56,830 bases of DNA from a virus (Duplodnaviria > Caudoviricetes), in IMG/VR virus record IMGVR_UViG_3300025327_000035, positions 1-56,830 of that record. One strand, 5' to 3'. How positions within the stretch are numbered: position 1 is the stretch's first letter; every line of letters starts with the position of its first letter. The notes under the pieces are model-generated. The model did not search any database and was not told the origin of the DNA. It saw only the letters and a list, made by a program, of their open reading frames with translations. Positions 17,179-33,414 of this stretch are shown one piece after another. The translations under genes and the position numbers were made by a program.

Positions 17179-17377
17179 ATTTCGCGCTTTCGAGCAAAAA
17201 AACTCAACGCGCTATGTCGTCCATCTATTCAGCGGCCCGGAGCATTTCAAGACCTGGTGCCAGGCGCATTGGCCACAGCACATGGTCGCCGCCAGCGCCG
17301 TTCGCGGCGTATGCGAGCGCTATCCGGTAGACCATCGCTTCGAGAATGAGCAAGAAATCATGGAGGTGCAGACGTGA
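17168..17377 (+). CDS. Small hypothetical protein
   Basis: Overlapping start/stop arrangement. Confidence 0.45.
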   Translation: MADEFRAFEQKNSTRYVVHLFSGPEHFKTWCQAHWPQHMVAASAVRGVCERYPVDHRFENEQEIMEVQT

Positions 17378-18132
17378 ACGACGAAAAGGCGATGGTTCAG
17401 CTTCAGGCCGCCACGGTCGCGGCGCTTCATCGCATCGCGACCGCGCTCGAGGCCATCGCGCTGAGTAAAGCGCCCGCCCCGAATTTCGTGAGGCCTCTCG
17501 GCGAATACGCTGAATTCGATTTTGATTCGATCGGCGCGAAAGTCGCCGCACGCGATCGGCACGGACCGACCACGCTGGAGTGGGGCGGCTATCAATGGAC
17601 GCGCCGTTCGCCGTCCAACAAGTTCGGATCGGCCATCTGGTTCTCGCGCCCGATTGGCAAGGCCGAGGATGGCAGTGTGCGCTATGCGCGCCTGATCACG
17701 TTCCGCGAGCCGAGCGAGGCTGAGCCTCTGCCTGAGAAGGTGGCCGAGAAAGTGAGAAACGGCGAATCGGCTGGCATCGGCAGGCAAGCTGCGACTCCCG
17801 GGCCCGAGCAGACACATCCAGCCGAAGAGACACAGGCTCACGCGCCGATCAACGCCGATGTGGCCCAAGCGAAGGCCAAGCTGCAGACCACGCCGGCCGC
17901 AAGCGATAACCGCAAGCTTGCGCGTATCATATCTGGTGCCTGGTTCGAGCGCGCGAAGAAGCTCGCGGCCCGGGTCTCATATTATCAGAAAGATGGCCAA
18001 CCCGACCTGTACCACCTGGCCGGCTCTGCATTGAAATGCGGATACCCGGAAATCACGGACGACAATCTTGCGGATGTGCTGCGCGCTCTGGAGCAGCACG
18101 CAATCGAGCAAACGGTCGAAGTGCCGGCATGA
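17374..18132 (+). CDS. DdrB-like single-stranded DNA binding/annealing protein
   Basis: FDFDSIGA...WGGYQWTRRS...AIWFSR...YARLITFR resembles the DdrB-family core. Confidence 0.6.
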   Translation: MNDEKAMVQLQAATVAALHRIATALEAIALSKAPAPNFVRPLGEYAEFDFDSIGAKVAARDRHGPTTLEWGGYQWTRRSPSNKFGSAIWFSRPIGKAEDGSVRYARLITFREPSEAEPLPEKVAEKVRNGESAGIGRQAATPGPEQTHPAEETQAHAPINADVAQAKAKLQTTPAASDNRKLARIISGAWFERAKKLAARVSYYQKDGQPDLYHLAGSALKCGYPEITDDNLADVLRALEQHAIEQTVEVPA

Positions 18133-18398: not shown

Positions 18399-19247
18399 AT
18401 GATTCCCCAAGAGACTCAAGAGATGATCGCGCGCGGCACGGAGCGCATCCAGCAGGAGTGGAAGCGCCGTGACGAAGAGAAGGCGGCACAAGAGCAGGCT
18501 TATCAGGCCCAGGTCGCCGAGGCGTGGGATCGCTTCGAGGCTGGCGCAAGGGCCGCGCTACCGCCGGAGCTGCATCCGTTCTTGCGGATCGAGCGGAAGA
18601 ATGATCACGAGCCAGATCGATGGTGGGAGGTGGCCGAGATCCAGATCGAAGGATTGGTACCGATCCGGATCAGTCTTCATCGCGGAGACAATGGCGAATA
18701 CACATCGGCTACGAACGGGAAGAGGCTGATAGTCGCTGGCATGCGAGACGCCGAAATCTCCTGGAGCGACGGGCAGAATTACGGCAATACCCACAAGACC
18801 GACGATCTGGAAGAGGCGCTCGGCTTGGCGCGCCTGCGCCATGAGAAGCTGATACTCAACGAAGCCACAGTCGAAGCCGAGCAGGCCAGGCGAGAAGCAG
18901 AGTACCGGGAGATAGAGCGCAAACAGGCCGAGCGCCATGCGCGCAAACAGGCCGAAGATCAGCGCGAAGCGGATGCCAGGCGGGAGCTATTCGATTCGGT
19001 TGCCCGGGACCCTGTCGCGCTGGTAATGCTCCGCGTTTTCGTCGCGCTCCAGGGTGAGCGCGCAGAGTGGGAAGAGCGCCTGAGCCAATCTGCCGAAACG
19101 GCATCGGCGATCGAGTATTCCTACGATCAGCAGCTCGCCAATGTGCGCGCCAAAGAGAGCCGCGCGCTGCAGGAAGCCGACGATGCGCGCCGGCGCGCCG
19201 AGGATGCCGAATACGAGTTAGCCCGCGCGAAGCGGGCTGCGCGATAA
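18399..19247 (+). CDS. Coiled-coil hypothetical protein
   Basis: AAGGAG RBS; E/R/A/Q-rich helices. Confidence 0.7.
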   Translation: MIPQETQEMIARGTERIQQEWKRRDEEKAAQEQAYQAQVAEAWDRFEAGARAALPPELHPFLRIERKNDHEPDRWWEVAEIQIEGLVPIRISLHRGDNGEYTSATNGKRLIVAGMRDAEISWSDGQNYGNTHKTDDLEEALGLARLRHEKLILNEATVEAEQARREAEYREIERKQAERHARKQAEDQREADARRELFDSVARDPVALVMLRVFVALQGERAEWEERLSQSAETASAIEYSYDQQLANVRAKESRALQEADDARRRAEDAEYELARAKRAAR

Positions 19248-19318
19248 CAGTCGCTTTAGTCTTTGCTCCCCCGCCGCCGGCGTGCTCTCGCCCGGTGGCG
19301 GGGGATAGCGAGTCCTCA

Positions 19319-19666
19319 ATGAGCCACAGACACGATCTGACAAAGCGCGAGCGCCAGGCTGCTCGCCTGGTCGCGGCCGGCCTGACCAATCGAGAGATCG
19401 CCGAAAGACTTGGCGTCGAAACCGCGACGGCAAAGACGCATGTGAGCCAGGTCTTGCGCAAGCTGGGCGTGGAGAGCCGGGAAGATGTGCGCGAGCTGCC
19501 GGAGCCGAGCAACGGGCAACATTCTGCGTTTTCAAATGATGACGTGATCGAGATTTTATGGAGCATCCATGCGCTGATGCTGCGCAGGGGCAGCCCGGAG
19601 CTGGCGAGGATCGTCAACCGGGCCTTGCTCCATATCCGCCTGCACCGGAATGGGTACGAGCGATGA
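19319..19666 (+). CDS. LuxR/NarL-type HTH regulator with no receiver domain
   Basis: LTKRERQAARLVAAGLTNREIAERLGVETATAKTHVSQVLRKLGVESR. Confidence 0.9.
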   Translation: MSHRHDLTKRERQAARLVAAGLTNREIAERLGVETATAKTHVSQVLRKLGVESREDVRELPEPSNGQHSAFSNDDVIEILWSIHALMLRRGSPELARIVNRALLHIRLHRNGYER

Positions 19667-20106
19667 AGGCAAGCAGCATCTTGACCATCTGCGCCGGGGG
19701 CGGATTCCGTTCCCGGATCATGGCCGTGCTGCTCGCGCAGCGAACGGGCCTGCGCACGGCCTACGCCGGCACGACGACGGACTGGCAGGGGCGTGTGAAC
19801 CCGCACGCCACGGCGGTCTTGGAGCATGCCGGCATCTATGATCGTCCGCTCATCTCTCACCAGGTTCGGGCCGATGAGATCACCGCCGCCGGCATCGTGA
19901 TCTGCGCCGAGCGCCGGCATCGCGAGCAGTTGTGTGAGATGTATCCCGAGGCAGCGGAGAAGATGTTCACATTGGCGGAATTGGCCGGCGTCGAGGACGT
20001 CGCCGATCCGACGCCGATCGCGCACCTGGGGCACCAGCTGACGCTCGACGAGCTGATGCCGACGTATCAGGAGATTCGTGCGGCAGTGGAGCGGATTGCG
20101 CTATGA
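19663..20106 (+). CDS. Low-molecular-weight protein Tyr/Arg phosphatase (ArsC/LMW-PTP fold)
   Basis: N-terminal P-loop ICAGGGFRS (C-X5-R-S), YAGT, and DVADP general-acid motif. Confidence 0.85.
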   Translation: MKASSILTICAGGGFRSRIMAVLLAQRTGLRTAYAGTTTDWQGRVNPHATAVLEHAGIYDRPLISHQVRADEITAAGIVICAERRHREQLCEMYPEAAEKMFTLAELAGVEDVADPTPIAHLGHQLTLDELMPTYQEIRAAVERIAL

Positions 20107-21137
20107 ACTTCCACGAAGTATCAAACTTATTCCCATTGATGTCGGACGAAGAGCTAGACGAGCTTGCAGACGACATCCAGGAAAATGGCCTCAAGGAGGC
20201 TATCTGTATTCACGACGGCAAGATCATTGATGGCCGCAATCGGTACCTGGCGTGCGAGCGCGCAGGCGTGGAGCCGCACTATCAGGAATGGGATGGCCAA
20301 GGCTCGCTGGTGTCGTTCGTCGTTTCGCTGAACCTCAAACGGCGCCATTTGAGTGAGAGCCAGCGCGCAATGGTCGCGGGGAAGTTGGCGAATATGCGTT
20401 CGGGTTCACGGACCGATCTTGTGAGAAATGGTGCGGAACCTCCCGCCAATTGGCGGGAGGTTAGTCAGACCGAAGCTGCAACCTTGCTTAATGTCGGCGA
20501 GCGCAGCGTGCAGCGCGCCAAGACGGTCATCGATCGCGGTGTACCCGAGCTTCAACAGGCCGTCGAGCACGGAGAGGTGTCTGTATTAGCCGCGTCCGAA
20601 ATCGCCCGCGCGCCACAGGAGAAGCAGCGCGAGCGCCTCAACGTGCACTTCTCAAGCAGCAGCGATGACCATAATACGCCGAGACATATACTCGACATGG
20701 TGATGGCTGTGATGGGCGAGATCGACCTCGACCCATGCAGCAACAGCAAGGAATCACCGAACGTCCCGGCCAAATACCATTACACAAAAAGCGACGATGG
20801 ATTAAGCAAAAAGTGGTTTGGCCGGGTCTATATGAATCCCCCTTACGGCGATGAAATCCCGAAATGGGTAGGCAAGCTGGTCGATACCTTCGAGTCAGGT
20901 GAAGTCAAGGAGGCCATCGCATTACTCCCGGCCAGGACGGACACCGCCTGGTTTAACCAGGTATGCAGCTACACTATTTGTTTTGTGCGAGGCCGGCTCA
21001 AATTCGGAGATGCGAATAACTCGGCCCCGTTCCCGTCCGCAGTTGTCTACCTCGGCTCTCGCTCGAAGCGCTTCATAAAAGCCTTTTCTGAGATTGGGCC
21101 GGTATTCCAAAGGGTCGATCGAGATGTACAAATTTGA
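20103..21137 (+). CDS. ParB-like N-terminal domain fused to a phage Dam N6-adenine methyltransferase
   Basis: LADDIQENG...IIDGRNRY; HNTP...DLDPCS, MNPPYG, LLPARTDTAWF, RGRLKF, APFPSA. Confidence 0.9.
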   Translation: MNFHEVSNLFPLMSDEELDELADDIQENGLKEAICIHDGKIIDGRNRYLACERAGVEPHYQEWDGQGSLVSFVVSLNLKRRHLSESQRAMVAGKLANMRSGSRTDLVRNGAEPPANWREVSQTEAATLLNVGERSVQRAKTVIDRGVPELQQAVEHGEVSVLAASEIARAPQEKQRERLNVHFSSSSDDHNTPRHILDMVMAVMGEIDLDPCSNSKESPNVPAKYHYTKSDDGLSKKWFGRVYMNPPYGDEIPKWVGKLVDTFESGEVKEAIALLPARTDTAWFNQVCSYTICFVRGRLKFGDANNSAPFPSAVVYLGSRSKRFIKAFSEIGPVFQRVDRDVQI

Positions 21138-21582
21138 TATACAGCTCGAAAAAGGCGAACTTCAAGAAAAACGCCTCGATGTGTTTTTCTCGAAGTGGTA
21201 CACCATCCGCAAGACTTCCCGGCAGATGCAGCGCGCGGGCATCGATCGGGTTTATCGGAGAAACGGCAAGGAGACGCGGATTGAATATAAGTCCGATTGG
21301 ACAGCCAGCAAAACGGGAAACGTGTTCATCGAGACGGTATCCGTGGATAGCGAAAATAAGCCGGGCTGGGCCTATACCTCACGAGCAGACATCTTGATCT
21401 ACCTGCTGCCTGATGACGATTTGGTCTACGTGGTAAAAATGAAAGACATTCGGAGCCACATTAAGGAATGGGCCAAGCGATACTCAGAGAAGTCGATCCA
21501 AAATCAGGGCTATTGCACGCGTGGACTGCCTGTCCCACAAATGGAGTTTGAAAAGCTTGCGGTTCAAGTATTGGTGATATAG
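21124..21582 (+). CDS. PD-(D/E)XK nuclease-like protein
   Basis: GID...IEYKSD...TGNVFIE...PGW..TSRAD; coupled to the methyltransferase. Confidence 0.6.
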   Translation: MYKFDIQLEKGELQEKRLDVFFSKWYTIRKTSRQMQRAGIDRVYRRNGKETRIEYKSDWTASKTGNVFIETVSVDSENKPGWAYTSRADILIYLLPDDDLVYVVKMKDIRSHIKEWAKRYSEKSIQNQGYCTRGLPVPQMEFEKLAVQVLVI

Positions 21583-21590
21583 GCACGAGA

Positions 21591-22493
21591 ATGGCGATCA
21601 AAACTCAAATTGAGTGGTGTGATTCGACTGTCAACGCAATGGCCGGCTGCGACGGCTGTGAGCTGTGGATCCCGAAGGCCGGCGTCCACGACTGCTACGC
21701 AGGCGTCTTGACGGAGCGGTACGGGGGCCGCTCCGGCTGGCCCGCGTCATTCGATCAGCCCCGGCACTTCCCCGGACGCATTGAGGCGGCGCTGCGCTGG
21801 CCCGATCTGGCCGGAACGAAGCGCGCCGACAAACCGTGGCTCGACGGAATGCCGCGCTTGATCTTCCTCGACGACATGGGAGACACGTTCACAGAGAGCC
21901 TTGACGCGGACTGGCTGCCGCCGCTCATAGAGCCGATGGCCCGCGCACCGCACGTCTGGATTTTCCTGACGAAGCGGCCGCGGCGGATGCGCGCATTCTT
22001 CGAGCGGGTGGGCATCCCGGCCAACTTCTGGCTGGGCACGACCGTCACTGGCCCGGCGACGCTTGGCCGGCTGCGCGACTTGCAGAGGCTGCGCGACATC
22101 GGCGATAACATCCTGTGGTGCAGCTTCGAGCCACTGATGGCGCCGCTTGAGTTCTCTGTCCGACAGGGGAACGGGGTGTTTGAATCCAGGGAAGGTTTTG
22201 TCAACGACGAGCCGGTTGACCTCGATCTCGAGCCACTCATAGACTGGGCGGTAGTCGGCGGCGGCAGCCACATGAAGCGCAAGATGAAGCCAGAATGGGC
22301 TTACGATTTGATCCATTGGCTTGATGTGACCGACGTCCCGACATTCTTCAAACAATGGGGGGACTTGTCCGCGAACCCGGACCCGGGCGACCCGACCGCG
22401 CGGGAGAACGGCGGGTACGCGAAAGGCGGACGAACAATCGGCGGCAGGACGCTGAGCGAATTTCCGAAGGTGGTTGGACTTGAGCGACAATAG
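21591..22493 (+). CDS. DUF5131 / phage Gp37-Gp68 family protein
   Basis: TQIEWCDSTVN..GC..C...DCYA, DMGDTF, LTKRP, SFEPL, DWAVVGG, FFKQWG. Confidence 0.9.
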   Translation: MAIKTQIEWCDSTVNAMAGCDGCELWIPKAGVHDCYAGVLTERYGGRSGWPASFDQPRHFPGRIEAALRWPDLAGTKRADKPWLDGMPRLIFLDDMGDTFTESLDADWLPPLIEPMARAPHVWIFLTKRPRRMRAFFERVGIPANFWLGTTVTGPATLGRLRDLQRLRDIGDNILWCSFEPLMAPLEFSVRQGNGVFESREGFVNDEPVDLDLEPLIDWAVVGGGSHMKRKMKPEWAYDLIHWLDVTDVPTFFKQWGDLSANPDPGDPTARENGGYAKGGRTIGGRTLSEFPKVVGLERQ

Positions 22494-22686
22494 CCGCCTG
22501 CAAATTATCACAGAAGCTCGCGCCATCATCGGCGGCGACGACGTGCCGCTGTGGTCGGTCGTCGCCGCGCTGGCGCTCGGCTATCAGGGAGAAGGCGTCG
22601 TGCTGCATGTGGCGCGTGTCATCCTGGAGTGGCACGATCTGTATGCCGTGAAAACGGATCGCGCTGCCAAGATCGGGCCAAGGTGA
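22474..22686 (+). CDS. Small hypothetical protein
   Basis: Overlaps the DUF5131 stop. Confidence 0.4.
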   Translation: MDLSDNSRLQIITEARAIIGGDDVPLWSVVAALALGYQGEGVVLHVARVILEWHDLYAVKTDRAAKIGPR

Positions 22687-22703
22687 AACGGATAAATTCC
22701 ATG

Positions 22704-22732
22704 TTGACAACAATTCAAAGCGGGCTTATACT
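22704..22732 (+). promoter_or_regulatory. Sigma70-type promoter
   Basis: TTGACA-N17-TATACT upstream of the HTH gene. Confidence 0.8.
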
Positions 22733-22760
22733 GCGTCGCAACTGTCACATAGGGGGCGCA

Positions 22761-23000
22761 GTGAAAAGAGAGCGAATCTTGAACATTCGCGAAGTTGCCG
22801 AAGTCTTTGGCGTATCGACGAGGACAATCCTGCGCAGGCTGGCGGTCGGATGGCTCCCCGGCGCGTATAAGTCCGGTCCGGGGAAGACATCGAAGTGGCT
22901 GTTTCCCGAAAGATCGGTAAACGCGCAGATCGAGGAACAGCAGTCAGAGCGTGCCTTGACAGCGCCGCAGAAGAAGCGGCGCGCACAGTCCGAGGACTGA
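22761..23000 (+). CDS. Excisionase-like / HTH_17 DNA-binding protein
   Basis: ILNIREVAEVFGVSTRTILRRL..G.LPGAYK.G....KWLFP. Confidence 0.8.
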   Translation: MKRERILNIREVAEVFGVSTRTILRRLAVGWLPGAYKSGPGKTSKWLFPERSVNAQIEEQQSERALTAPQKKRRAQSED

Positions 23001-23037
23001 ACGCGCCGCCGCGCTTCGGCCACTACCCTGATAGCCC

Positions 23038-23087
23038 CCTCCGCCAAGAGCCGGGCTGATCAAGGCACCCTAACAACCGAGTAGCGC
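23038..23087 (+). promoter_or_regulatory. Early leader motif, copy 2
   Basis: CCTCCGCCAAGAGCC-N14-ACCCTAACAACCGAGTAGCGC. Confidence 0.6.
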
Positions 23088-23144
23088 TTGCACGACATCC
23101 CCATGCGTAGGGGATGGTGTGCCCCATTTGGCCGACGGCCTCAG

Positions 23145-23188
23145 CAGGGGCTTATGAGTCCCCTGCTCTGCCACTGAGCTACGCCGCC
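23145..23188 (-). other. 5' half of a tRNA(CAT), Met/Ile2 type; candidate attP
   Basis: Minus strand GGCGGCG TA GCTC AGTGGCA GAGC A GGGGA CTCATAA GCCCC TG gives the acceptor 5' strand, D arm and anticodon arm; no T arm follows. Confidence 0.8.
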
Positions 23189-23219
23189 AGCGCCAAATGA
23201 GCAAAGCGCTTCGGACTGG

Positions 23220-23228
23220 ATTATATCA
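23220..23228 (-). promoter_or_regulatory. Extended -10 promoter facing the tRNA half
   Basis: Minus strand TGATATAAT about 30 nt upstream of tRNA position 1. Confidence 0.6.
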
Positions 23229-23230
23229 CG

Positions 23231-23258
23231 AAACTCTACGCAGGTAGAGTTTTTGTTT
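23231..23258 (+). terminator. Hairpin + T-tract before the replication operon
   Basis: AAACTCTAC-GCAG-GTAGAGTTT then TTGTTT. Confidence 0.5.
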
Positions 23259-23282
23259 CGACATTCAGTTCAGGAGCTAACG

Positions 23283-23486
23283 ATGCAATACGATCTATAT
23301 AAAGTGTTTACAAAGGATTCTTTGAGAGCGACGGTCTACGTCGCGTCCAATGAGGATCCTGACTTCGAGATTCGACGTTGGCTGGGCCAACAGAACGTGG
23401 CGCCGGCAAACGTGTCGAGCATTTCTCCGGCCGGATACCGGACGGAAGATGTCCGGCCGAAGAACACGCCGTTCGTGGCGAGCTAG
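23283..23486 (+). CDS. Small hypothetical protein
   Basis: AGGAG RBS before ATG 23283. Confidence 0.55.
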   Translation: MQYDLYKVFTKDSLRATVYVASNEDPDFEIRRWLGQQNVAPANVSSISPAGYRTEDVRPKNTPFVAS

Positions 23487-23495
23487 GAGAGCGCA

Positions 23496-23705
23496 ATGAG
23501 TGCAGAACTGGCGAAAGCGTATTGGCTCGTCCTTGGTAGTGGCTGGACCGACGATGGGGCGCGCCAACGTTTCAAGGAAAAGTTTGGATACCATGCGGAA
23601 CAGGTCATCCGAGAGAAGGGCTATGCGTGGGTCGGTCCGATCAAAGAGGCAACATTGAAGCCGACACCCAGGCCAGAGCCGACGCCGGACTTGATTGTTC
23701 TATAA
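23496..23705 (+). CDS. Small hypothetical protein
   Basis: AGGAG RBS; ARQRFKEKFGYHAE. Confidence 0.6.
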   Translation: MSAELAKAYWLVLGSGWTDDGARQRFKEKFGYHAEQVIREKGYAWVGPIKEATLKPTPRPEPTPDLIVL

Positions 23706-23819
23706 ATGGATCGAGCCACGTCCCCCAACGTGGCCCGCTCCCCCAAGGTGGTGCAGTTGCTGACATACCTGCACCCCCAGTATACACCCGTCTGTCAAGA
23801 CAGGCAATGGGGGTCAATG

Positions 23820-24647
23820 ATGAGTGTCAAGGCAATGACTGCCGTATTCGATGCGCGCAGACTGACTCCAACCGAAAAGCTAGTGCTCTTGGCGCTGGCC
23901 GATCATGCCTCCGAGGATGGATTGAATATCTATCCGAGTGTGGAGACTGTGTGTAAGAAGACCGCATTAGGAGACCGCACAGTAAGGCGCACCATCAAGT
24001 CGCTGAGAAGCGAAAAGAGAGGCATCCTGTTTCTGGTCAGGCGAAAAGGGCGACTGCAAAATGAATACGGCATGAATCTGGCGAAGTTGCAAGACCTGCC
24101 AGACGATCCACTGAGACCTGCCACTGTGGCAGGTCAAGACCTGTCAGACGATCCACTGAGACCTGCCACTGTGGCAGGTAAATCATCAGTAGAATCGTCA
24201 GATCATCCATCAGGAAATCTTAACGCTGCTACGCCGCGTAACGCTCGCCCGCAAGACCTGCACTTTGAAGCTCTCTCGGATGTCTCAAACCTGACACCGC
24301 CCGGGCGGGACTGGAAGCAGCTCACGCGGACCGCCGCCGGCCAGCTCAACCGCTACGCCAAAGAGCTGAGAGACGCCGGCGCGACACCGGAACAGATCGC
24401 GGCCTTTGGGCCGTGGTGGTACGCAAACGATTGGCGCGGCCAGAAGCGACAGCCGCCGAAGCCGGCGGACGTAGCCAGAGAGTGGCCGCGCTACAGGAAC
24501 GGAGATCGAACGAATGGAACACATCAGCAAAGCACTGGCCCGTTTGCAGGACTCGATCCCGCCGAGCGCGAACGGCTCCAGGCGCTCGCCGACAAGATCA
24601 ACGCTCGACGAGCGGCGAAGCGCGCAGCGCAGCGCGGCGCTGCGTGA
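23820..24647 (+). CDS. Replication initiator (N-terminal HTH_36-type winged helix)
   Basis: MSVKAM...KLVLLALADHA...YPSVETVCKKT.LGDRTVRRTIKSL; internal tandem repeat; followed by DnaC; the start could be upstream (23706/23817). Confidence 0.85.
   Translation: MSVKAMTAVFDARRLTPTEKLVLLALADHASEDGLNIYPSVETVCKKTALGDRTVRRTIKSLRSEKRGILFLVRRKGRLQNEYGMNLAKLQDLPDDPLRPATVAGQDLSDDPLRPATVAGKSSVESSDHPSGNLNAATPRNARPQDLHFEALSDVSNLTPPGRDWKQLTRTAAGQLNRYAKELRDAGATPEQIAAFGPWWYANDWRGQKRQPPKPADVAREWPRYRNGDRTNGTHQQSTGPFAGLDPAERERLQALADKINARRAAKRAAQRGAA
24090..24179. repeat. 2 x 45-bp tandem repeat, probable replication origin iterons
   Basis: CAAGACCTG(C/T)CAGACGATCCACTGAGACCTGCCACTGTGGCAGGT x2, each ending in the palindrome ACCTGCCAC-T-GTGGCAGGT. 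Confidence 0.85.
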
Positions 24648-25368
24648 GTACGCCGAGCTGCTGGGATCGACGCCCGGCATCGAGCGTTGTCCGAAGTGTG
24701 ACGGCTCCGGCGTCGTGGTCGATCCGCTTGGCTTCGGGCATTCGTGCCCGGAGTGTGAGCCTCGTCGGCAGGCCGAGCGGATGCAGGTGATGTCGGGCCT
24801 GAACGCCGACGAGCGCGCTGTTCGGCTCGACGACGTCGACTTCACCGGCGGCGGCACGGATGGACTGATCGTCGCGGCGCGGACGTTCCTGGTGCGGCCC
24901 GCCGGCATCCTGACACTGTGGGGCGGTCCGGGCAACGCCAAGACAATGGTGCTGCAGGCCATCGTCGGCGAGTGCCTGGCGCGCAGCGTGCCGGCGGTGT
25001 ACACGACATTCTACGATCTCGCGGGTTACGTGCGCGAGGCGTTCCGGGACGACAGCGAATCGGCCTGGCGGCGCATGCAGCGATTCCAGTCGGTGCGCGT
25101 GCTGTGCATTGACGAGCTGGACAAGGTGAAGGATACAAGTTGGTTGCGCGAGCTCGAGACAGCGATCATCGACAAGCGCTACCGCGATGGCCTGGCTGGT
25201 CTGACTGGAACGGTGATCGCCATGAATGAATCACCTGACTCATTGCCGGAGTGGATCAAGAGCCGGCTGCGGGATGGGCGCAATCGGATCGTGCACAATT
25301 CCGATCCGGATGTGCGGACGGCGATGTCGGATGAGAGCGGTCCGAGCGCGCGGCCGGCGGGGTTGTGA
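24514..25368 (+). CDS. DnaC/IstB-like AAA+ helicase loader
   Basis: CPKC...CPEC zinc motif; variant Walker A GGPGNAKT; Walker B LCIDEL; IKSRL. Confidence 0.9.
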   Translation: MEHISKALARLQDSIPPSANGSRRSPTRSTLDERRSAQRSAALREYAELLGSTPGIERCPKCDGSGVVVDPLGFGHSCPECEPRRQAERMQVMSGLNADERAVRLDDVDFTGGGTDGLIVAARTFLVRPAGILTLWGGPGNAKTMVLQAIVGECLARSVPAVYTTFYDLAGYVREAFRDDSESAWRRMQRFQSVRVLCIDELDKVKDTSWLRELETAIIDKRYRDGLAGLTGTVIAMNESPDSLPEWIKSRLRDGRNRIVHNSDPDVRTAMSDESGPSARPAGL

Positions 25369-25369
25369 T

Positions 25370-25564
25370 ATGACGATGAAGCAAGACGGAAACGTGAATC
25401 AAAGTTACATCGACCTGATCGTCGAAGCGTGGCACGAGCTGCAGGAGATCGAGGCGGGCCATGCCGCCAGGATCGACGGATGGCATCTCAAATGGTCGGC
25501 GCGATCCATCAGGGTTGGAGATCGCGAGGCGATGATCAGGAATCTGAAGAAGGCCAAAGTGTGA
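25370..25564 (+). CDS. Small hypothetical protein
   Basis: ATG directly after the DnaC stop. Confidence 0.4.
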   Translation: MTMKQDGNVNQSYIDLIVEAWHELQEIEAGHAARIDGWHLKWSARSIRVGDREAMIRNLKKAKV

Positions 25565-25771
25565 CCTGCGGCCCCGATGGGCGCATAGAGTCTCTAGGTC
25601 AGCCCGGGCCGGCCAGTCACGGCCTGGGCGCCTGCACCTGCCCGCGCGGGCGGGAGGGCCGGGAGTGATGCGCACCGAGTAGGCCGCTGAATCCAAATCG
25701 GCGAATGTGGTTGGAGATACAAAAAGGGACTCAGGGCAGAGGGCTGGCTCTGCCCTCCTTGAGGAGGAACA

Positions 25772-26008
25772 ATGGCGATCAACTCATACACATTACGGTC
25801 GGACGCAGATAGATTAGCGCAGGGACAAGCCGCAGGCGCATGGGATGGTGTTGTCAACCGCCTGCGCGAAGCGGCTGATGAGATTGATCGCTTGCGCACG
25901 GATTGTGCCGTGAAGCAAGGCGCGATAGATGCGATGTGCGGGGCGCTTGGCGTCAAGACGGTGCGCGAGGCGATGGCTGCGATCAATAAGCTGCACCTGA
26001 AAGGGTAG
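25772..26008 (+). CDS. Small hypothetical protein
   Basis: GAGGAGG RBS; LREAADEIDRLR. Confidence 0.65.
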   Translation: MAINSYTLRSDADRLAQGQAAGAWDGVVNRLREAADEIDRLRTDCAVKQGAIDAMCGALGVKTVREAMAAINKLHLKG

Positions 26009-26017
26009 GGGGATAAT

Positions 26018-26983
26018 GTGAAAACGATTTCCGCTGTTTTTCTGCTCGTGGCGCTCGTGCTCACCGGCTGTGTATCGGCCGAAGACCAAATCGCGTTGAT
26101 CAACGCGCGCCGCGCCGATGAGCAGAAACGCATCGATCAAGCGGCATACGAGACCATTGCGCCGGCGCTGGCGCAACTCGACCTGGAGGCGCAGCAGGCT
26201 GAGCAGGACCTGCGCATCGCGCAGGAGCGCCAAGTCAGCGTCGAGGAGCACGAGACACGCATGACGCAGATCTTGGCTGAGCGGACTGCGCTGATCGCAG
26301 GCATCCAAGTCGACGTGGCCGGCAAGGTGAACCGGCTCAACGCTGACTACGAGCGCCAAATCGCGCAGATTCGCCAGCAGACCGACCAGGCGAATGCTGA
26401 AGGATGGGGGAAGGTACTCATCATCGGCGGATTCTCGGCCTCGGTCACGCTGCTAATGCTTGCTCTGGTCTTTCTGATCAAGGCACAGGGCCAGGCCTAT
26501 GTGTTGAGGACTCAGACCGAGGCGCGCAGGCTGCAGGCGGACGCGAATGGCAAGTACGGTCTGGTGGCCGTCGATCAGGATACGTTTTTCGACGCCGACA
26601 TGCGTACCGGTGCGGTGACCTCATTTGATCGTATACCCTGGGCGATCAAGTTGGCGCTGTTGTGGATGGCTTGGAAGAGTGGCAAGCTCGACCTCGATCA
26701 GTGGCGCGAGGTTACACGCACGCGAGCTAGCTTCACCGACGACGATCTTAGCGAAGAAAGCCGGCTGGCCATCTATCAGGCCAATAAGGCGCATCAGATC
26801 GTCGCCGCCGCGACGAAGCCCGGAGCACAAGCGAATGACAAGATCGCTGGCGCGGTCCAGGGCCGTGTCGCCGGCGCGGTGAGCGGCCTGTTCGGCGGCG
26901 CATCGCAGGCGCTGCGCCTGATACGGACCGATGACCCGCTCGAGCTGGAATGGGTGCAGAAACATCTGCGCAATGGAGAATAG
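26018..26983 (+). CDS. Putative lipoprotein with coiled coil and transmembrane helix
   Basis: Lipobox LTGC after a hydrophobic leader; ~110-aa coiled coil; TM segment VLIIGGFSASVTLLMLALVFLI. Confidence 0.75.
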   Translation: MKTISAVFLLVALVLTGCVSAEDQIALINARRADEQKRIDQAAYETIAPALAQLDLEAQQAEQDLRIAQERQVSVEEHETRMTQILAERTALIAGIQVDVAGKVNRLNADYERQIAQIRQQTDQANAEGWGKVLIIGGFSASVTLLMLALVFLIKAQGQAYVLRTQTEARRLQADANGKYGLVAVDQDTFFDADMRTGAVTSFDRIPWAIKLALLWMAWKSGKLDLDQWREVTRTRASFTDDDLSEESRLAIYQANKAHQIVAAATKPGAQANDKIAGAVQGRVAGAVSGLFGGASQALRLIRTDDPLELEWVQKHLRNGE

Positions 26984-26985
26984 CC

Positions 26986-27198
26986 ATGAACAAAAGCCTC
27001 ACTGTGGTTTCATCTCATGGAACAGAGATTGTTTTTGACTTGGATAATGGCATGAAGTGGTCACGCGGGGAGGATGGTCGCGTCACCATCGAAAACCTCG
27101 ATGGCCTGATTGCCATTGTCCCGATCGACTGGTGCGTGACCGGTATCGAGCGCAGTAAGCTCACCGTAATATCTCCCGATGGCGAGGAGCGGCAATGA
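26986..27198 (+). CDS. Small hypothetical protein
   Basis: GGAG RBS; ATGA overlap with the next gene. Confidence 0.55.
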   Translation: MNKSLTVVSSHGTEIVFDLDNGMKWSRGEDGRVTIENLDGLIAIVPIDWCVTGIERSKLTVISPDGEERQ

Positions 27199-28025
27199 GA
27201 CGATGTTTGATTCTCGTCTTGCTGGGCTTGGCATTCATTGTGCCAGCGGCTCATGCGCAGGATCCAAGCCCGACGCTCGACCCAGTTGCCCAGGCCGAGG
27301 CATTGCAGGCCCAGGCCGATCGCGCGCTGTCCGAGGCGCAGGCCGCGGCCGGCCAGGCGTCTTCGTTGCGCGCCCAGGCAGCGCAGGCGGACGCGCGCGC
27401 GGCCCAGGCGCGTTCCGCTGCGCAATTGGCGCTGGCCGAAGCCGAGCGCTTGCGCCTCGTCGGCGCGCTGAGCGAAGCCCAGGCAGCCATCGAGCAAGCG
27501 CGACTGGCCGAGCAGCAGGCCGCGCAGATCGAGGTCGAGGCTGCTCAGGCCCGGGCGCTGTACGACGAGGCTTACATGCGCGCGCTTGGCGCGATCGCCA
27601 ATGCCGAAGAGGCAATGAAGAGCGCCGGGATCTCCGTGGCAAACGTCGAAGCGCTTCGCGCTCAACTTGCCGCGATGCAGAGCGATCTGCGTGTGGCCGA
27701 AGAGCGATCGCGCATCCTGGCAATCGCCGGCGCCGGCCTGTTCGCGCTGGTGGCACTCAGCGCGCTCGCGGCATTGCAGATCATGCGCCATCAGCGTCGA
27801 ATGATCATCGGAAGCGTCGACGTCGCCGTGCGGTCGCTGTCCCGCGAGCGGGCGCAGGTCACGGAGATGCTTATGCACATGCTGGCCAGCATCGGCGGCA
27901 AAGACGGAGAGACGATCATCGATCACGGCGCGCCGGCGCTCGACGGGGACGATCTATTCATCCGGCGCTACGCCGATGCGCCGGAGCACATCGTCGAAGG
28001 CTTGAAAGATTTATTCCATGACTAA
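27195..28025 (+). CDS. Signal-peptide / coiled-coil / TM membrane protein
   Basis: Leader ending AHA-Q; Ala/Gln-rich coiled coil; TM segment ILAIAGAGLFALVALSALAAL. Confidence 0.75.
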   Translation: MRRCLILVLLGLAFIVPAAHAQDPSPTLDPVAQAEALQAQADRALSEAQAAAGQASSLRAQAAQADARAAQARSAAQLALAEAERLRLVGALSEAQAAIEQARLAEQQAAQIEVEAAQARALYDEAYMRALGAIANAEEAMKSAGISVANVEALRAQLAAMQSDLRVAEERSRILAIAGAGLFALVALSALAALQIMRHQRRMIIGSVDVAVRSLSRERAQVTEMLMHMLASIGGKDGETIIDHGAPALDGDDLFIRRYADAPEHIVEGLKDLFHD

Positions 28026-29565
28026 CACCGCATTGGCGGTTATATCCGACGCGGACATCTTCAAGGCCGCCAGCCGGCTTGCTCGTGGCCTGGAGAGCCA
28101 TCCCTCGCTGCGCCACGATAACGGCGACGGCTCGATCTTTCGCGTGACGATTATGCAGGATGTCACGCTGATCGCCAATCGCTATCTGCTCGTGCCGGTC
28201 GACCTGAATCGCCTGTGGCACTTCGACAAGAGCCGTCTGCGCCGGCCCCGACTGCTGGAGCACCTGGAGATCGAGGTTGGAATGCCTGTCAGGTATATCG
28301 CATCCGATCGGGGCTTCTTCTATGTACTCGAGTGGAACTCCGGGCGCGGGAATGGCGCGCCGGCCCGGGCCATAGCGCTGCCGGGGATGGTGGCACTGCC
28401 GTCTGTCGAGCGCGATCGGTTCGCGCTGGGCGTTGCCGATCACGGGCCGCTGCTTGCCGAGCGCCGCGAGCTGCGTGGTGTGGTCGTCGGCGGCGGGCCT
28501 CGCACGGGCAAGACGAGCCTGCTGCGCTCGCTGGCTTACCAGGCTGTGAGCAATGGCTGGATATTGTATCTGGCAGATAAGCCGCTCGGAAACACGTTCA
28601 TGCCGGCGCTGTGGTCGCGTGTGCCGAGCGTCGCAGGCATTGCCACGAATGGATCTGAAATCGATGAGCTGCTCACGGACATTGACGATCAGTGCAGCCG
28701 GCGCGCTGCGCTGTTCGCTGAGGCGGCGCGCAATTACATTCCACCCGAAGACCTGGAGCAGTTCAACGAATGGACCGGCTCGCGCTTGCCGCCGATCCTG
28801 TTCGCGGCTGACGAGTTCAATACGTTCAGCCACTACATCTCGATGGAGCGGTTCGCCGACATCGCGCGCCGCAATCAGAAATACGGGTTGATGATTGTCA
28901 TCGCTGCGCACGAGTGGAAGAGCGACGCCATCAGCAAGTCGCTTTCCGAACTTCTGGAGACGCGCATCTGCTTCCACATGGCGAGCCGTGAGGCAATCCG
29001 CGCGGTGATGCCGTTTGTCAGCCCGGCGCAGGTGGCACAGCTCGGCCGTATCGCCGAGCAGGGCAGGGTGGCGATCAATCTGATGGGTCATCACTCGCTG
29101 ATGCAGGCTTACTATCTCGATCCGGAGCGGCTGTCGGCGATGGCCGTGAGCCAGGCCGTCGAGAAGCCGCGTGTGACGCTCACAACGAATGAGCAGGAGA
29201 TCGCCCGCGCGGCGATCGAGGAACTGGACGGTTACTTCTCCATTGAAAAGCTGGCCGCGCTCGGCATCAGCCGGCGCCAGATTGTCAAAGCGTCGAAGGC
29301 GTGGGCAGACCGGGGCTGGCTTGGACCGGTGACGGACAGGGGACGAGCTTTGACAGATCGCTTCGCCGATGATACCGGCCTGGAGCAGGGTAGGCCCCAA
29401 GAGGCCCCAGGGCGATCAGACCGATCAGACGATCAGGGCGATCAGACCGATCAGGCCCCCGAAACATTGGGCTTTGCCGGCAGAGCGACGGAGCGCGACA
29501 TCGCGTTCGCGGAGGGTCTGATCGCCCGCAGAGGGGGTCTGAACGCCGGTCTGACCGGGGTCTGA
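28018..29565 (+). CDS. FtsK/SpoIIIE-family DNA translocase with a C-terminal winged-helix-like domain
   Basis: Walker A GGPRTGKT; ILFAADEF Walker B; ARRNQKYGL; TRICF; GISRRQIVKASKAWADRGWL. Confidence 0.8.
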   Translation: MTNTALAVISDADIFKAASRLARGLESHPSLRHDNGDGSIFRVTIMQDVTLIANRYLLVPVDLNRLWHFDKSRLRRPRLLEHLEIEVGMPVRYIASDRGFFYVLEWNSGRGNGAPARAIALPGMVALPSVERDRFALGVADHGPLLAERRELRGVVVGGGPRTGKTSLLRSLAYQAVSNGWILYLADKPLGNTFMPALWSRVPSVAGIATNGSEIDELLTDIDDQCSRRAALFAEAARNYIPPEDLEQFNEWTGSRLPPILFAADEFNTFSHYISMERFADIARRNQKYGLMIVIAAHEWKSDAISKSLSELLETRICFHMASREAIRAVMPFVSPAQVAQLGRIAEQGRVAINLMGHHSLMQAYYLDPERLSAMAVSQAVEKPRVTLTTNEQEIARAAIEELDGYFSIEKLAALGISRRQIVKASKAWADRGWLGPVTDRGRALTDRFADDTGLEQGRPQEAPGRSDRSDDQGDQTDQAPETLGFAGRATERDIAFAEGLIARRGGLNAGLTGV

Positions 29566-29580
29566 CCGCCCCGATCAGAC
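29413..29580. repeat. Cluster of ten 7-9 bp repeats (CGnTCAGAC) in both orientations
   Basis: CGATCAG at 29413, 29422, 29430, 29439, 29448 and 29572; inverted GTCTGAnCG at 29516, 29537, 29549 and 29560. Confidence 0.85.
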
Positions 29581-29679
29581 CAGGGGATTACACATGAAAG
29601 CTGTCATGGCGATCGCCTTGATCATGGAGAACAAGGCAAAGGCGGTGCTGGCGGTGATTGACGCGGAGCGGCCGCCGGC

Positions 29680-30021
29680 ATGCGAGTGCGGGAGGTGCTC
29701 GTGAGCGACAGAGAACAGCGATACATCGTGACCTCGCGCGATTTCAGTGGCGGCGTCACCATCTGGTACGTGAAGGATTCGCGCGTCGTCGCCGGCGGCG
29801 AGCCAGCTATCGTCGCACGTTGCAATAATGAATCAGACGCGCGGCTGGTGCGGGACGCGCTGAATGCTCCCGCCGATGCCGAGGCGTTCCTGCGGCACTG
29901 GCTGCGCGAGCGGATGCAGGCCGATGGGGCGCTGGTGGAGATGGCGATACGCGATTTCCGGGAGTGGCAGAGATCCCGGATTTCGGGAGTCTCATCAGGC
30001 CCCAAAAGTGCCCCCGGTTAA
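29680..30021 (+). CDS. Hypothetical protein
   Basis: GGAGG RBS before GTG 29701, the likely start. Confidence 0.5.
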   Translation: MRVREVLVSDREQRYIVTSRDFSGGVTIWYVKDSRVVAGGEPAIVARCNNESDARLVRDALNAPADAEAFLRHWLRERMQADGALVEMAIRDFREWQRSRISGVSSGPKSAPG

Positions 30022-30060
30022 ACGGAGAAGCCCGTCACGATTCGTGACAGAGGTCGAACG

Positions 30061-30531
30061 ATGCCTGATACGTTTCCGCCCAAATTTGGAGGAAAATTCA
30101 AATTCTATCGCACGCGCGATCTGGCCCGATTTCTGACGAGGCTTCACGAGCGGGAAAGGCTTTCGTGGCGCGACATCGCTCAAGAGAAATTCGGTAATGG
30201 GATACCGCCTGGCACGCTATGCCGAATCGCAAAAGGCGACTATGATCCGAGACACAACAGCATTCGAGAGAAGCTTGGCTTGCCAAAAACGATCAGGCTC
30301 GTGGTGTTGAATGGTCATATCCGCGAAGGCGCGGTTGTTCTGGGTCATTCGCGTCGGTGTGCCTGGCGGCGATGTCGTGTGCACTTCGTCGGCGACGCAA
30401 GCCGGCGATACTGCTCGGATGAATGCGGTCGCCAGGCTCACGCTGATCAGCGGAAGCGATCAGCAAAAGAGCGCCGCGAGCGGGCGCGCCGGCTGGTGGC
30501 TCGCAAGCGGAACGAAAAGCGGAGGAAATGA
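30061..30531 (+). CDS. HTH + zinc-finger DNA-binding protein
   Basis: LSWRDIAQEKFGNGIPPGTLCRIAKG; CAWRRC...YCSDEC; basic tail. Confidence 0.65.
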   Translation: MPDTFPPKFGGKFKFYRTRDLARFLTRLHERERLSWRDIAQEKFGNGIPPGTLCRIAKGDYDPRHNSIREKLGLPKTIRLVVLNGHIREGAVVLGHSRRCAWRRCRVHFVGDASRRYCSDECGRQAHADQRKRSAKERRERARRLVARKRNEKRRK

Positions 30532-30532
30532 C

Positions 30533-32203
30533 ATGCTCAAAATATCCGATCGCCTTTCGCTTCCTGTCGAAGCGATCACCCAAACGTTTGGCATTCTGGC
30601 CGTGCGTGGCGCCGGCAAGTCTAATCTGGCCGCCGTGATGGCTGAGGAGATGTTCGATGCTCGTCTGCCATTCGTGGTCATCGATCCGGTCGGCGCATGG
30701 TGGGGCCTGCGCTCGTCAGGCGATGGCCGTTCTGCCGGCATCCCGGTTCCGATCTTCGGCGGCCGGCATGGGGATGTGCCGCTTGAACGCGCAGGCGGGA
30801 ACCTGATCGCGGATCTCGTCGTCGAGCATCGGCTTAGTTGCGTTCTGGACGTCAGTGAGCTAAGCGAAGGCGACAAGGTGCGTTTCTTGTGCGACTTCGC
30901 CGAGCGTCTCTATCGGCGCAACACAGAGCCGTTACATCTCTTCTTGGAGGAGGCCGACGATTATGCTCCGCAGCGTCCCATGCGCGAGCAGGCGAGACTA
31001 TTACGCGCCTGGGAAAACATCGTGCGCCGTGGCCGGGCGCGCGGCCTGGGCATCACGATGGTCACACAGCGGAGCGCCGCATTAAACAAGAATGTGCTCA
31101 CGCAGATCGAGACGCTATTCGTGCTGCGCACCACGTCACCGCAAGACCGTAAGGCGATTGCGGCTTGGGTTGAATACTACGATCAGAGCCGTGACGTGCT
31201 CGAATCGCTTCCCAGCCTGATGAACGGCGAGGCGTGGGTTTGGTCGCCGTACTTTCTCAAGACGATCAAGCGAGTCCATATTCGCCGCCGTCGCACATTC
31301 GACAGCGCTGCAACGCCGAAGCAGATACGCGGTGGTCGAAAGCCCGCGACGCTGGCGGACGTCGACCTGGCTGCTATCGGCGAACGAATGCAGGATACAA
31401 TCGAGCGCGCGAAGGAAATCGATCCGACGGAGCTTCAAAAGCGCATCGCCGATCTAGAGCGCCGATTACGCGCACAGCCGAAGCCAGAAATTGAGCGCGT
31501 GGTTGATCGAATCGAGATTCCAATTTTCAAGGACAGCGAGGTGGCACGGCTCGAAAAGGCCGTTGCCGGCATCCAGGAATTCGGCGCGCAATTGGTGAAT
31601 GTGGCGCAGGAAATCAGCGGCGCGCTGCGGGCGGTGACGACCAGGCCAATGCCTGCACCTGTGAATCCGGTTTGGGTGCGTCCCGTGGTTTCCCCTGCCC
31701 CACGTGCGGCCAGGACGGAAGCAGCTGAGGCAGATGTCAAGCTGCCAAAGGCGGAACGATCGATCTTATCTGTGCTGGCACAGTATTATCCGCAAGGACG
31801 AAACAAGACGCAGCTCGCGATCCTGGCCGGCTACTCTGTGAAGGGTGGGGGATTCAACAATGCGATCGGCGCGTTGCGCTCCTATGGATTCATTCGCGGT
31901 GGCAAAGAGCACATCGAGATCACAGACGCCGGTCTGTCTGCAATCGGCAGCGATTGGGAGCTACTGCCGACCGGTCGGGTACTGATCGATTATTGGCTGC
32001 GTGAGTTGCCGAAGGCCGAGCGGTCGATCCTGAGTGTGCTGGTGGACGCATATCCGAATGCAGTCGAGAAGACCGCGCTTGCCGAGGCGGCCGGCTATCA
32101 GGTCGGAGGCGGTGGATTCAACAATGCGCTTGGCAAGCTGCGCACGCTCGAGTTGGCGAGAGGACGAAATGAGATCCGGGCGAGTGATGCGCTGTTTGAA
32201 TGA
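30533..32203 (+). CDS. HerA/DUF87-like ATPase with tandem C-terminal winged-helix repeats
   Basis: GILAVRGAGKS, VIDPVGAW, LFLEEAD, RRGRARG, TQRSA; LPKAERSILSVL...GGGFNNA occurs twice. Confidence 0.85.
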   Translation: MLKISDRLSLPVEAITQTFGILAVRGAGKSNLAAVMAEEMFDARLPFVVIDPVGAWWGLRSSGDGRSAGIPVPIFGGRHGDVPLERAGGNLIADLVVEHRLSCVLDVSELSEGDKVRFLCDFAERLYRRNTEPLHLFLEEADDYAPQRPMREQARLLRAWENIVRRGRARGLGITMVTQRSAALNKNVLTQIETLFVLRTTSPQDRKAIAAWVEYYDQSRDVLESLPSLMNGEAWVWSPYFLKTIKRVHIRRRRTFDSAATPKQIRGGRKPATLADVDLAAIGERMQDTIERAKEIDPTELQKRIADLERRLRAQPKPEIERVVDRIEIPIFKDSEVARLEKAVAGIQEFGAQLVNVAQEISGALRAVTTRPMPAPVNPVWVRPVVSPAPRAARTEAAEADVKLPKAERSILSVLAQYYPQGRNKTQLAILAGYSVKGGGFNNAIGALRSYGFIRGGKEHIEITDAGLSAIGSDWELLPTGRVLIDYWLRELPKAERSILSVLVDAYPNAVEKTALAEAAGYQVGGGGFNNALGKLRTLELARGRNEIRASDALFE

Positions 32204-32373
32204 GGGCGGCTCAATGCCTGTCGAGAATGCAATCGTGGTAAGCGGGATAGAACCCCGACCACATAACTAGCGACAAGGCCACTTATCGTTAGTGCGGTAT
32301 AGGTCCTTACACGCTACCGGGAACCTCTCATAAAAAAGATTATGTTCAATACTTGCTTAGCCGCTGATAGTAT

Positions 32374-32607
32374 ATGCGCGATTTTCCCCCTGCCCCGCCT
32401 GGCCTGACCCATTACTGGTACTGGCGCATCCGCAAATGGCACCCTGAGCGCTTCGGCCAGCCGTGCCGCATCCTGGCGCGCGGCAAGCTGAACACCGTCC
32501 TCGTTGAATTCGAGGACGGCTACCGAATGACCACGAGCCGATGGTTCGTGCGGCGCATGACTCCAGGCGCGGCCCAGCCCGTGCGGGCTGCGTTCGGCGA
32601 GAAGTAG
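32374..32607 (+). CDS. Small phage hypothetical protein (SH3-like?)
   Basis: ERFGQPCRILARGKLNTVLVEFEDG. Confidence 0.6.
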   Translation: MRDFPPAPPGLTHYWYWRIRKWHPERFGQPCRILARGKLNTVLVEFEDGYRMTTSRWFVRRMTPGAAQPVRAAFGEK

Positions 32608-32626
32608 AACGCGCGTGCAGGGGCTG

Positions 32627-32655
32627 GCCCGGCCGGAGCGCCGGGCTTTGTGTTT
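32627..32655 (+). terminator. Intrinsic terminator
   Basis: GCCCGGC-CGGAGC-GCCGGGC-TTTGTGTTT. Confidence 0.6.
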
Positions 32656-32690
32656 ACAGCGTTTTCGCTGCGGAATTTCTAACCAATTTT

Positions 32691-33389: not shown

Positions 33390-33414
33390 CAGCGTTGCGG
33401 TGGTTGAGGATGAA

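Follow-up and report, generated by a model that had tools for sequence, protein, structure and literature searches.

Does the attachment site of a tailed phage lie between its early promoter and its replication genes, so that integration itself parts the one from the other? The question is raised by a 56,830-nt stretch of DNA from a virus of the Caudoviricetes (Duplodnaviria; IMG/VR record IMGVR_UViG_3300025327_000035), which we analyzed at its full length and refer to as the window. Positions 22704-23290 hold, in order, a strong promoter (hereafter, P22704), a small helix-turn-helix (HTH) gene, a conserved leader, a piece of a tRNA gene, and a hairpin, and a replication module follows. An earlier interpretation made from the letters alone, the sequence-only reading, had placed the core of an attachment (att) site at about 23155 and had proposed that recombination there would by itself silence replication. 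We find it highly probable that 22704-23290 contains the phage attachment site (attP). The broader reading, in which attP lies here and integration splits the early promoter from the replication module, appears reasonably probable.

A truncated tRNA-Met gene as the likely attachment site

The putative core is intergenic, between the HTH gene (stop codon at 22998-23000) and the first small open reading frame (ORF) on the replication side (ORF1, from 23283), and truncates no gene product. Read on the minus strand from 23188 to 23145, it reproduces the acceptor 5′ strand, D arm, and anticodon arm of a tRNA-Met, and the T arm is missing. The piece scores 23.7 bits against the Rfam tRNA model (cut-off 29), ARAGORN calls no tRNA at 23145-23188, and the cloverleaf with T arm that a functional tRNA gene would show at the caller's threshold is absent. 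It is the sole tRNA-like sequence that we found in the window, the surroundings of the integrase included.

The identity of this piece to host DNA is sharply bounded. Positions 1-41 are identical (41/41) to the intact tRNA-Met genes of G780 and G781, two sister genomes of the Anaerolineae-class metagenome-assembled genome (MAG) G715, and to a prophage junction in G715 itself; the identity to the intact gene breaks at position 42. That position is C in the phage, in the G715 junction, and in L029, a 2.1-kb metagenome contig about 93% identical to the window in the flanking genes, and T in the intact tRNAs, the pattern that a crossover 5′ of it would give. The half tRNA gene that had been read at about 23155 is thus real, and lies on the minus strand.

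Judged from its sequence, the attP is of the rare reversed (5′-distal) tRNA type, in which the phage holds the 5′ portion of the tRNA gene. Recombination at the 5′-distal side is described as considerably less frequent than at the 3′-distal side (PMC6563490, citing Zhao & Williams 2002 and others). A sharp-ended block of identity and an encoded tyrosine recombinase, both expected of such a site, are present; an integrase beside the att site is not. The candidate integrase, the only recombinase found in the window, lies 11 kb from attP, and among 401 genomes of the class its two best homologues are those of G676 (61% identical) and G715 (57%).

An integrated relative ends at the tRNA piece

Evidence for the assignment of attP comes from a related prophage in G715 (contig C138, 112000-163427; L051-L054). 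The junction reads, in order, the host genes FabF and plsX (PF02504, 1.2e-98), about 400 nt, a TGGTATAAT promoter, and tRNA-Met positions 1-41 followed by C; then come the left-arm blocks of the phage, a homologue of the HTH gene, and TTGACA-17-TATACT, which together with the HTH gene faces the junction, as the outward promoter at the integrated end does in Tn916-type elements. Beyond this P22704-like promoter lie phage genes for HNH, DUF5131, ParB, portal, and capsid proteins. In the sister genomes G676, G781, and G780 an intact tRNA-Met lies 0.8-1 kb from plsX on the same contig, so the G715 site is a native tRNA-Met locus interrupted after position 41. The plsX/tRNA-Met locus is common to four of the 22 family genomes, counting the truncated copy of G715; in the other family genomes with a match (20 of the 22 searched) plsX and tRNA-Met are on different contigs.

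A natural prophage therefore ends exactly at the tRNA piece, in agreement with the proposed recombination at about 23155. A junction next to the integrase, which would have spoken against that proposal, is not what G715 has: its integrase homologue and its HTH gene are on opposite strands, and the homologue lies 41.7 kb from the junction, compared with 44.7 kb along the long way round the phage genome. Between the integrase and the end of the contig (163,427), the HTH strand carries helicase and FtsK-like genes. At their ends the two genomes are collinear. The expected second junction would lie some 2-3 kb beyond the contig end. The claim that integration parts the early promoter from the replication module has accordingly been borne out at one end, where promoter, xis-like gene, and leader sit at the prophage tip; the replication end is not seen in G715.

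The early promoter, the HTH gene, and the leader

The promoter called at 22704 stands out from its surroundings: between 21500 and 24500 three sites match at least 9 of 12 consensus positions, against 0.6 ± 0.7 in shuffled sequence, and the hexamers of P22704 are identical in L029 and in the G715 prophage. The 79-residue HTH protein encoded next matches PHROG 66 ('excisionase and transcriptional regulator') at E 4e-7; its match to Pfam HTH_17, at 25.3 bits and E 1.8e-5, falls short of the cut-off (27). The homologues of the window, L029, and G715 align (G715, 47% identical), and these matches support the xis-like gene that the sequence-only reading had described.

The leader motif noted near 23038 is likewise real and shared by the window, L029, and G715. 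It (23035-23065) is single-copy in the window, and the block CCCCTCC(G/A)CCAAGAG(C/A)C(G/A)GGC is conserved in both relatives; no Rfam family matched 23034-23095. In the left-arm hairpin that follows, the stem has changed in sequence and still pairs in L029 and G715 (alignment read by eye). No antiterminator of the put, nut, or EAR type matched in Rfam at E ≤ 10. As a whole, the 282-nt intergenic region 23001-23282 folds better than 200 of 200 shuffles (z -4.15), a figure that includes the complement of the tRNA arm set.

The minus strand of the leader also contains a boxA-like GGCTCTTGG, seen by eye. The left- and right-arm hairpins (23109-23114, 23235-23250) share GC-GTAG(G/A)G on their 3′ sides, GTAGGG in the one and GTAGAG in the other (again by eye); the left arm has GTAGAG in L029 and GTAGGG in G715. 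The shared GTAG(G/A)G could be a protein site or allow alternative RNA pairing.

A predicted tRNA promoter, a hairpin, and the replication module

On the other side of the core, a predicted extended -10 promoter, TGATATAAT, reads into the tRNA 5′ end, with 31 nt between the end of the hexamer (23220) and tRNA position 1 (23188). Our promoter scan omitted it, as it has no -35 match. The element is identical in L029 and homologous to native DNA upstream of tRNA-Met in G783 (TGTATAAT) and G715 (TGGTATAAT). A 5′-type site needs a promoter for the rebuilt tRNA gene, which would explain a minus-strand promoter at this place; by homology, the phage-borne, host-derived TGATATAAT would drive the rebuilt tRNA. 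In L029 the right arm is identical from ATTATATCAC through the hairpin and T-run.

The hairpin next to it had been described as terminator-like at 23231. Hairpin (23230-23253) and T-run are indeed present, and 100% conserved in L029. As a terminator the hairpin is weak: its -12.3 kcal/mol compares with -17.5 to -25.3 kcal/mol for the three other terminator-like hairpins of the genome, a terminator scan of the window did not list it, and it has a host counterpart. On the minus strand, 23230-23259 is the A-tract and -35 region of the TGATATAAT promoter, and native G783 DNA has CCAAC-TTGC-GTTGG at the same place upstream of its tRNA-Met. Over 122 nt, A-tract and hairpin position included, the phage right arm is 74% identical to this G783 upstream DNA; the right arm is therefore captured host DNA.

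The operon of rep, DnaC, FtsK, and HerA genes reported downstream was recovered by profile searches as an O-like initiator followed by DnaC/IstB-like, FtsK-like, and HerA-like genes (Table 1). It is preceded by two small ORFs, the first with a ribosome-binding site (AGGAG, 23273-23277), for which no family matched in Pfam or PHROGs. Inside the initiator gene lie two tandem 45-nt direct repeats (24090-24179, 98% identical, repeat family D14), which by analogy with lambda O are likely the origin of replication. Each of the 45-nt repeats holds a GACCTGCCA...TGGCAGGT palindrome.

No promoter of its own was recognized for the module. Our scans cover sigma-70-like sites, and other promoter types are invisible to them; within that scope there is no plus-strand promoter matching at least 9 of 12 positions between 22732 and 24500, and no plus-strand candidate with at least 4 of 6 matches in both hexamers in 23140-23300, which agrees with the earlier statement that none lies between 23190 and 23283.

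Table 1. Coordinates (window positions) and supporting evidence of the features discussed in the text.
Feature	Position	Strand	Evidence
Early promoter P22704, TTGACA-17-TATACT	22704-22732	+	11/12 consensus positions
Excisionase-type HTH gene (xis-like or regulator), 79 aa	22761-23000	+	HTH_17, PHROG 66
Left arm, two conserved blocks ('leader motif' and ACAACCGAG-TAGCGCTTGCA)	23034-23095	+	Kept in window, L029, and G715
Left-arm hairpin CATCCCC-ATGCGTA-GGGGATG	23096-23116	.	-12.3 kcal/mol
Conserved GGTGTGCCCCATTTGG directly after left-arm hairpin	23116-23131	.	Kept sequence
Putative attP core, tRNA-Met(CAU) positions 1-41; likeness extends to 23145 (position 44)	23148-23188	-	Rfam, identity to host tRNA
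Extended -10 promoter TGATATAAT reading into tRNA 5′ end	23220-23228	-	Sequence, homology
Terminator-like hairpin GAAACTCTAC-GCAG-GTAGAGTTTT and TGTTTC	23230-23259	+	-12.3 kcal/mol
Two small conserved ORFs, 67 and 69 aa	23283-23705	+	Conserved in L029 (protein level)
Replication initiator (Rep), O-like, HTH_36	23706-24647	+	Pfam HTH_36 6.6e-13; PHROGs replication initiation 8e-16
Rest of replication module: DnaC/IstB-like ATPase, unknowns	24514-32203	+	Profile matches
FtsK-like gene	28018-29565	+	Profile matches
HerA-like gene	30311-32203	+	Profile matches
Tyrosine integrase, 312 aa, XerD-sized; candidate for this attP	34191-35132	-	PF00589 3.1e-36; PHROG 1 9e-52
HNH gene	45376-45927	-	Profile matches

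Relatives and searches for further junctions

Among metagenome contigs, Rep was found at four loci, of which L029 is the only close one. This contig keeps the order of the window, from the promoter hexamers (identical) through the HTH gene (homologous, but diverged) and the leader blocks to the tRNA piece (identical). Strain-variant contigs in two soil runs bridge the site in its phage form, and none of their listed differences falls inside 23145-23189. A distant phage (L002/L028), with a Rep 70% identical, is without the tRNA piece; L002 has TTGACA-17-TAGAAT directly upstream of Rep (read by eye).

Other collections yielded little. Megablast of 15000-39000 against a phage collection gave no match. 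Searches of viral contigs found no relative with the tRNA-piece 38-mer, the right-arm 26-mer, the leader consensus, or ORF1, one relative with Rep (L002), and three with the integrase (40-42% identity, without the tRNA-Met piece). Rep has 10 weak matches (≤40% identity) in 401 Chloroflexota genomes and, among the 22 genomes of the G715 family, a match in G608 only. Left-arm DNA, searched against the 401 genomes of the class, found G715 and three matches of 26-36 nt that we judged to be chance. The integrase has matches at E ≤ 1e-40 in 33 of the 401 genomes of the class with an Anaerolineaceae MAG, and its named relatives are proteins of Caldilineae and Ardenticatenaceae MAGs. Two genomes marked as unpublished, G277 and G769, support none of the statements made here.

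We mapped reads of four samples (X1 and X2, the best, and X3 and X4) to 19000-37000 with a likeness threshold of 85%. Among the loose ends and pieces listed, none stood out as a host-phage junction, as reads from the tRNA genes of many organisms pile up on the tRNA part: its summed read depth is in the thousands, and the listed loose ends at 23148/23152 and 23188/23189 have a consensus agreement of 0.4-0.8. Among the sequencing runs listed as matches there was none of RNA.

Chloroflexota MAGs also carry partial or degenerate 3′-type copies of tRNA-Met near intact genes (L004, 4590-4740; L005, 860-1010; L007, 1020-1190), and in G676 and G783 HTH or integrase genes lie directly downstream of tRNA-Met. 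From these sequences, tRNA-Met looks like an integration hot spot in the phylum. In a Planctomycetota MAG (G005:C1:1175355-1204191; L034, L035), positions 1-45 of tRNA-Met and an intact copy, directly oriented, flank a 28.7-kb island with a DNA methylase, a subtilase, and a 465-residue integrase beside the intact gene. By its layout, this island is an independent and unrelated case of reversed 5′-type tRNA integration. A T-armless tRNA was considered as well, with an acceptor-like closure that also occurs in the G005 fragment; shuffles of the downstream 60 nt reach this closure, and it is not beyond chance.

What integration would do to replication

With a crossover in or near the anticodon loop of tRNA-Met, integration would give two products: a truncated tRNA (native promoter and positions 1-41) fused to the phage left arm and, at the opposite prophage end, an intact tRNA driven by the phage-borne promoter. 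Because attP lies between them, P22704 and the xis-like gene on the one hand and the replication module on the other must, by the geometry, come to lie at opposite prophage ends, the module at its own tip, next to the rebuilt tRNA and read away from it. In the circle, most transcription of the module would start at P22704 and read through the joined att site; integration would uncouple replication from P22704, as in Tn916. This regulatory coupling, with read-through in the circle and none in the prophage, we put forward tentatively, as a proposal that falls a little short of an even chance. Several observations argue for it: between the core and the first replication ORF there is no plus-strand promoter candidate in the window, or in L029 up to the start of ORF1; the layout of promoter, HTH gene, att, and replication genes is conserved in L029; the left-arm hairpin keeps pairing with a changed stem across three lineages (by eye); and the relative L002 has its promoter directly upstream of Rep.

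A stricter form, in which a tailed phage uses the principle of Tn916, would have a module that lacks a promoter of its own and is reached only by polymerase from P22704, modified by the conserved left-arm leader and hairpin as a cis-acting antiterminator; we consider it unlikely. Integration would then remove both promoter and antiterminator, the remaining hairpin would insulate the module from host transcription, and prophage replication would be off for structural reasons, resuming only after excision.

A number of points weigh against the split as we describe it. There is one integrated relative, seen at one of its two junctions, and the 41-mer is single-copy in its genome. The DNA upstream of the tRNA in G715 also resembles the phage right arm (ACCCTACC, TGGTATAAT), so the breakpoint may be displaced to the right of the core by as much as about 75 nt. 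The distance between attP and the integrase is unusual for tRNA-targeting elements. A search of 185,579 species genomes with the anticodon-arm pattern returned five loci (three in Chloroflexota), and no junction of this phage. In the circle, hairpin and T-run would also hinder transcripts from P22704 unless termination were suppressed, and the strong convergent promoter TGATATAAT faces P22704. Promoters of an unrecognized type may serve the module, and L029 has TTGACA-17-TACAAA at the start of ORF1. Going by the native DNA of G783, hairpin and T-run may be inherited tRNA promoter architecture and not a purpose-built insulator.

Alternative explanations

In one alternative, attP lies here and the split is incidental: hairpin and T-run would be no more than captured architecture of the host tRNA promoter, the module would have an unrecognized or activator-dependent promoter, and the phage an ordinary repressor invisible to Pfam. 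Such an account accommodates the homology of the hairpin and A/T-tract to native G783 DNA, the weakness of the hairpin and its absence from the terminator scan, the many small early ORFs without a family (most of them), the need to silence other strong promoters in any case, and the ORF1 site of L029. That site, however, is not conserved in the window, where 23140-23300 holds no plus-strand candidate with 4 of 6 matches per hexamer, and the order of promoter, HTH gene, att, and replication genes is kept in L029; we regard an incidental split as somewhat unlikely. Much further from probable is a reading that puts attP elsewhere and takes the tRNA piece for an RNA gene of the phage, encoding a decoy or a tRNA-like RNA that lacks the T arm, or for a phage tRNA gene that has decayed. 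The piece does have its own extended -10 promoter, and Rfam scores an end-to-end acceptor-like closure at 23.7 bits in the window, 26.1 in L029, and 29.1 in G715; one variant (23135 A>G) turns a G-U of the closing helix into G-C, and another has a 2-nt bulge insertion. Closure is nevertheless reached in 742 (window), 766 (L029), 749 (G715), and 3359 (G005) of 5000 shuffles, and on the minus strand the fold does no better than shuffled sequence (z -0.90). The G715 copy, moreover, sits at the native tRNA-Met locus by plsX, flanked by host genes to one side and by phage genes to the other, as a junction would be; we give this idea hardly any credence.

The sequence-only reading went further than the split that we favor, and made integration alone the lysogeny switch, with no repressor needed. 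The geometry of the promoter end, seen in G715, suits this idea. Its observation that there is no divergent cI/cro pair also holds up: no divergent regulator pair was seen in the window, and a Pfam search of 70 ORF translations matched no XRE, S24, or CI family, although unrecognized repressors are possible. Neither mark of a CI/Cro-type switch, an XRE/S24 repressor or a divergent pair, was thus found; an absent Pfam match is, however, no proof of an absent repressor, and the 79-residue HTH protein may itself be a regulator, as the name of PHROG 66 allows. Integration, moreover, leaves other strong promoters (32705, at 12/12, 35452, and 53371) untouched, with their genes. In the G715 lysogen the P22704/xis-like unit is intact and faces outward; an unrepressed excisionase-type gene would destabilize lysogeny, so P22704 must be controlled. 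That integration by itself silences the phage is, on this evidence, very unlikely.

Comparison with known systems

The mycobacteriophage BPs, which had been offered as precedent, is not the closest one. In BPs attP lies inside the repressor gene, and integration changes phage gene expression (PMC4557955, PMC3694055). The likeness is that of an attP inside a functional unit whose integration alters phage gene expression; as these accounts describe BPs, the difference is that attP here is intergenic (in the 282-nt region 23001-23282) and that no protein is truncated.

The layout proposed for the phage is found in Tn916, which is described with the promoter Porf7 and the antiterminator canT at one end and the terminator T1 and the DNA-processing and replication genes at the other (PMC11658703). 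The terminator is described as an insulator against read-through from the host (Wirachman & Grossman 2024, PMC11658703). In both, the joint would have a promoter, xis-type genes, and a cis-acting leader to one side and, to the other, a hairpin and replication genes with no promoter of their own; only the circular form brings the two sides together. Tn916, as described, is conjugative, replicates by rolling circle, and targets AT-rich sites, whereas the present element is a tailed phage with an O-like initiator, a tRNA target, and a hairpin that is weak and comes from host DNA.

Compared with other reversed tRNA integrations, as the literature cited above describes them, the phage would show the same traits: the element carries the 5′ tRNA part, the displaced fragment is the 5′ part, and the intact gene would receive element DNA upstream. 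Its integrase lies 11 kb from attP, whereas that of the Planctomycetota island is beside the intact tRNA; a further difference is that attP here lies inside an early transcription unit.

Phage lambda offers two further comparisons. Its early operon is laid out PR-cro-nutR-tR1-cII-O-P, and attP does not lie inside it. In sib retroregulation of int, reportedly described by Schindler and Echols in 1981, the att site of lambda separates a cis-acting RNA element from the gene that it controls. The order of early promoter, small HTH gene, leader, terminator, O-like initiator, and loader is lambda-like; the difference is that we identified no N-like or nut-like element here in Rfam.

If the assignment holds, this is a documented case of the rare reversed (5′-distal) tRNA integration in a phage of the Chloroflexota, with the site pinned by a natural lysogen and an attP far from its integrase. 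To our knowledge, the Chloroflexota are a phylum with almost no studied phages. The tRNA promoter arm is visibly captured host DNA and shows how such a site can arise. Should transcription cross the joint, excision-coupled replication control would extend from conjugative elements such as Tn916 to tailed phages, and would account, in a testable way, for the avoidance of prophage replication independent of induction.

Genome context and other features

The IMG/VR record is labeled linear and is 56,830 bp long, with a CheckV completeness of 69% and, in the window, a GC content of 60.6%. Its first and last 141 nt (1-141 and 56690-56830, repeat family D4) form a direct terminal repeat that is 99% identical, and on this ground the record is probably, despite its label, an entire genome of about 56.7 kb, either circular or terminally redundant. 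Genes for terminase and tail tube, together with Mu-F-like head genes, identify this soil virus as a tailed phage, which would be temperate; its host would belong to the same class of Chloroflexota as the Anaerolineaceae. Almost every likely gene is on the plus strand; the recognized minus-strand genes are the integrase and the HNH gene, the same two that had been singled out as the only convincing ones.

Upstream of P22704 lie genes for a DdrB-like single-stranded-DNA-binding protein (17374-18132), a low-molecular-weight phosphotyrosine phosphatase (19558-20106), a Dam-type methylase (20103-21137), and a DUF5131 protein (21591-22493). Beyond the integrase, 35992-36774 encodes a 260-residue protein built from a pair of PAS domains (PAS_3, 1e-18). 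Its gene is flanked by a small membrane-like ORF and the gene of an M23 peptidase (37222-37881); a sensor-type gene is unusual for a lysis region. In the G715 prophage, the structural module is inverted relative to the window, and a second tyrosine recombinase (126875-127786), ParB, and a MoxR/VWA pair are encoded. Near the right end of the window, 50440-51800 contains at least 13 copies of a 42-nt (14-residue) repeat within a 714-residue ORF (49818-51962), which is probably a fiber or decoration protein.

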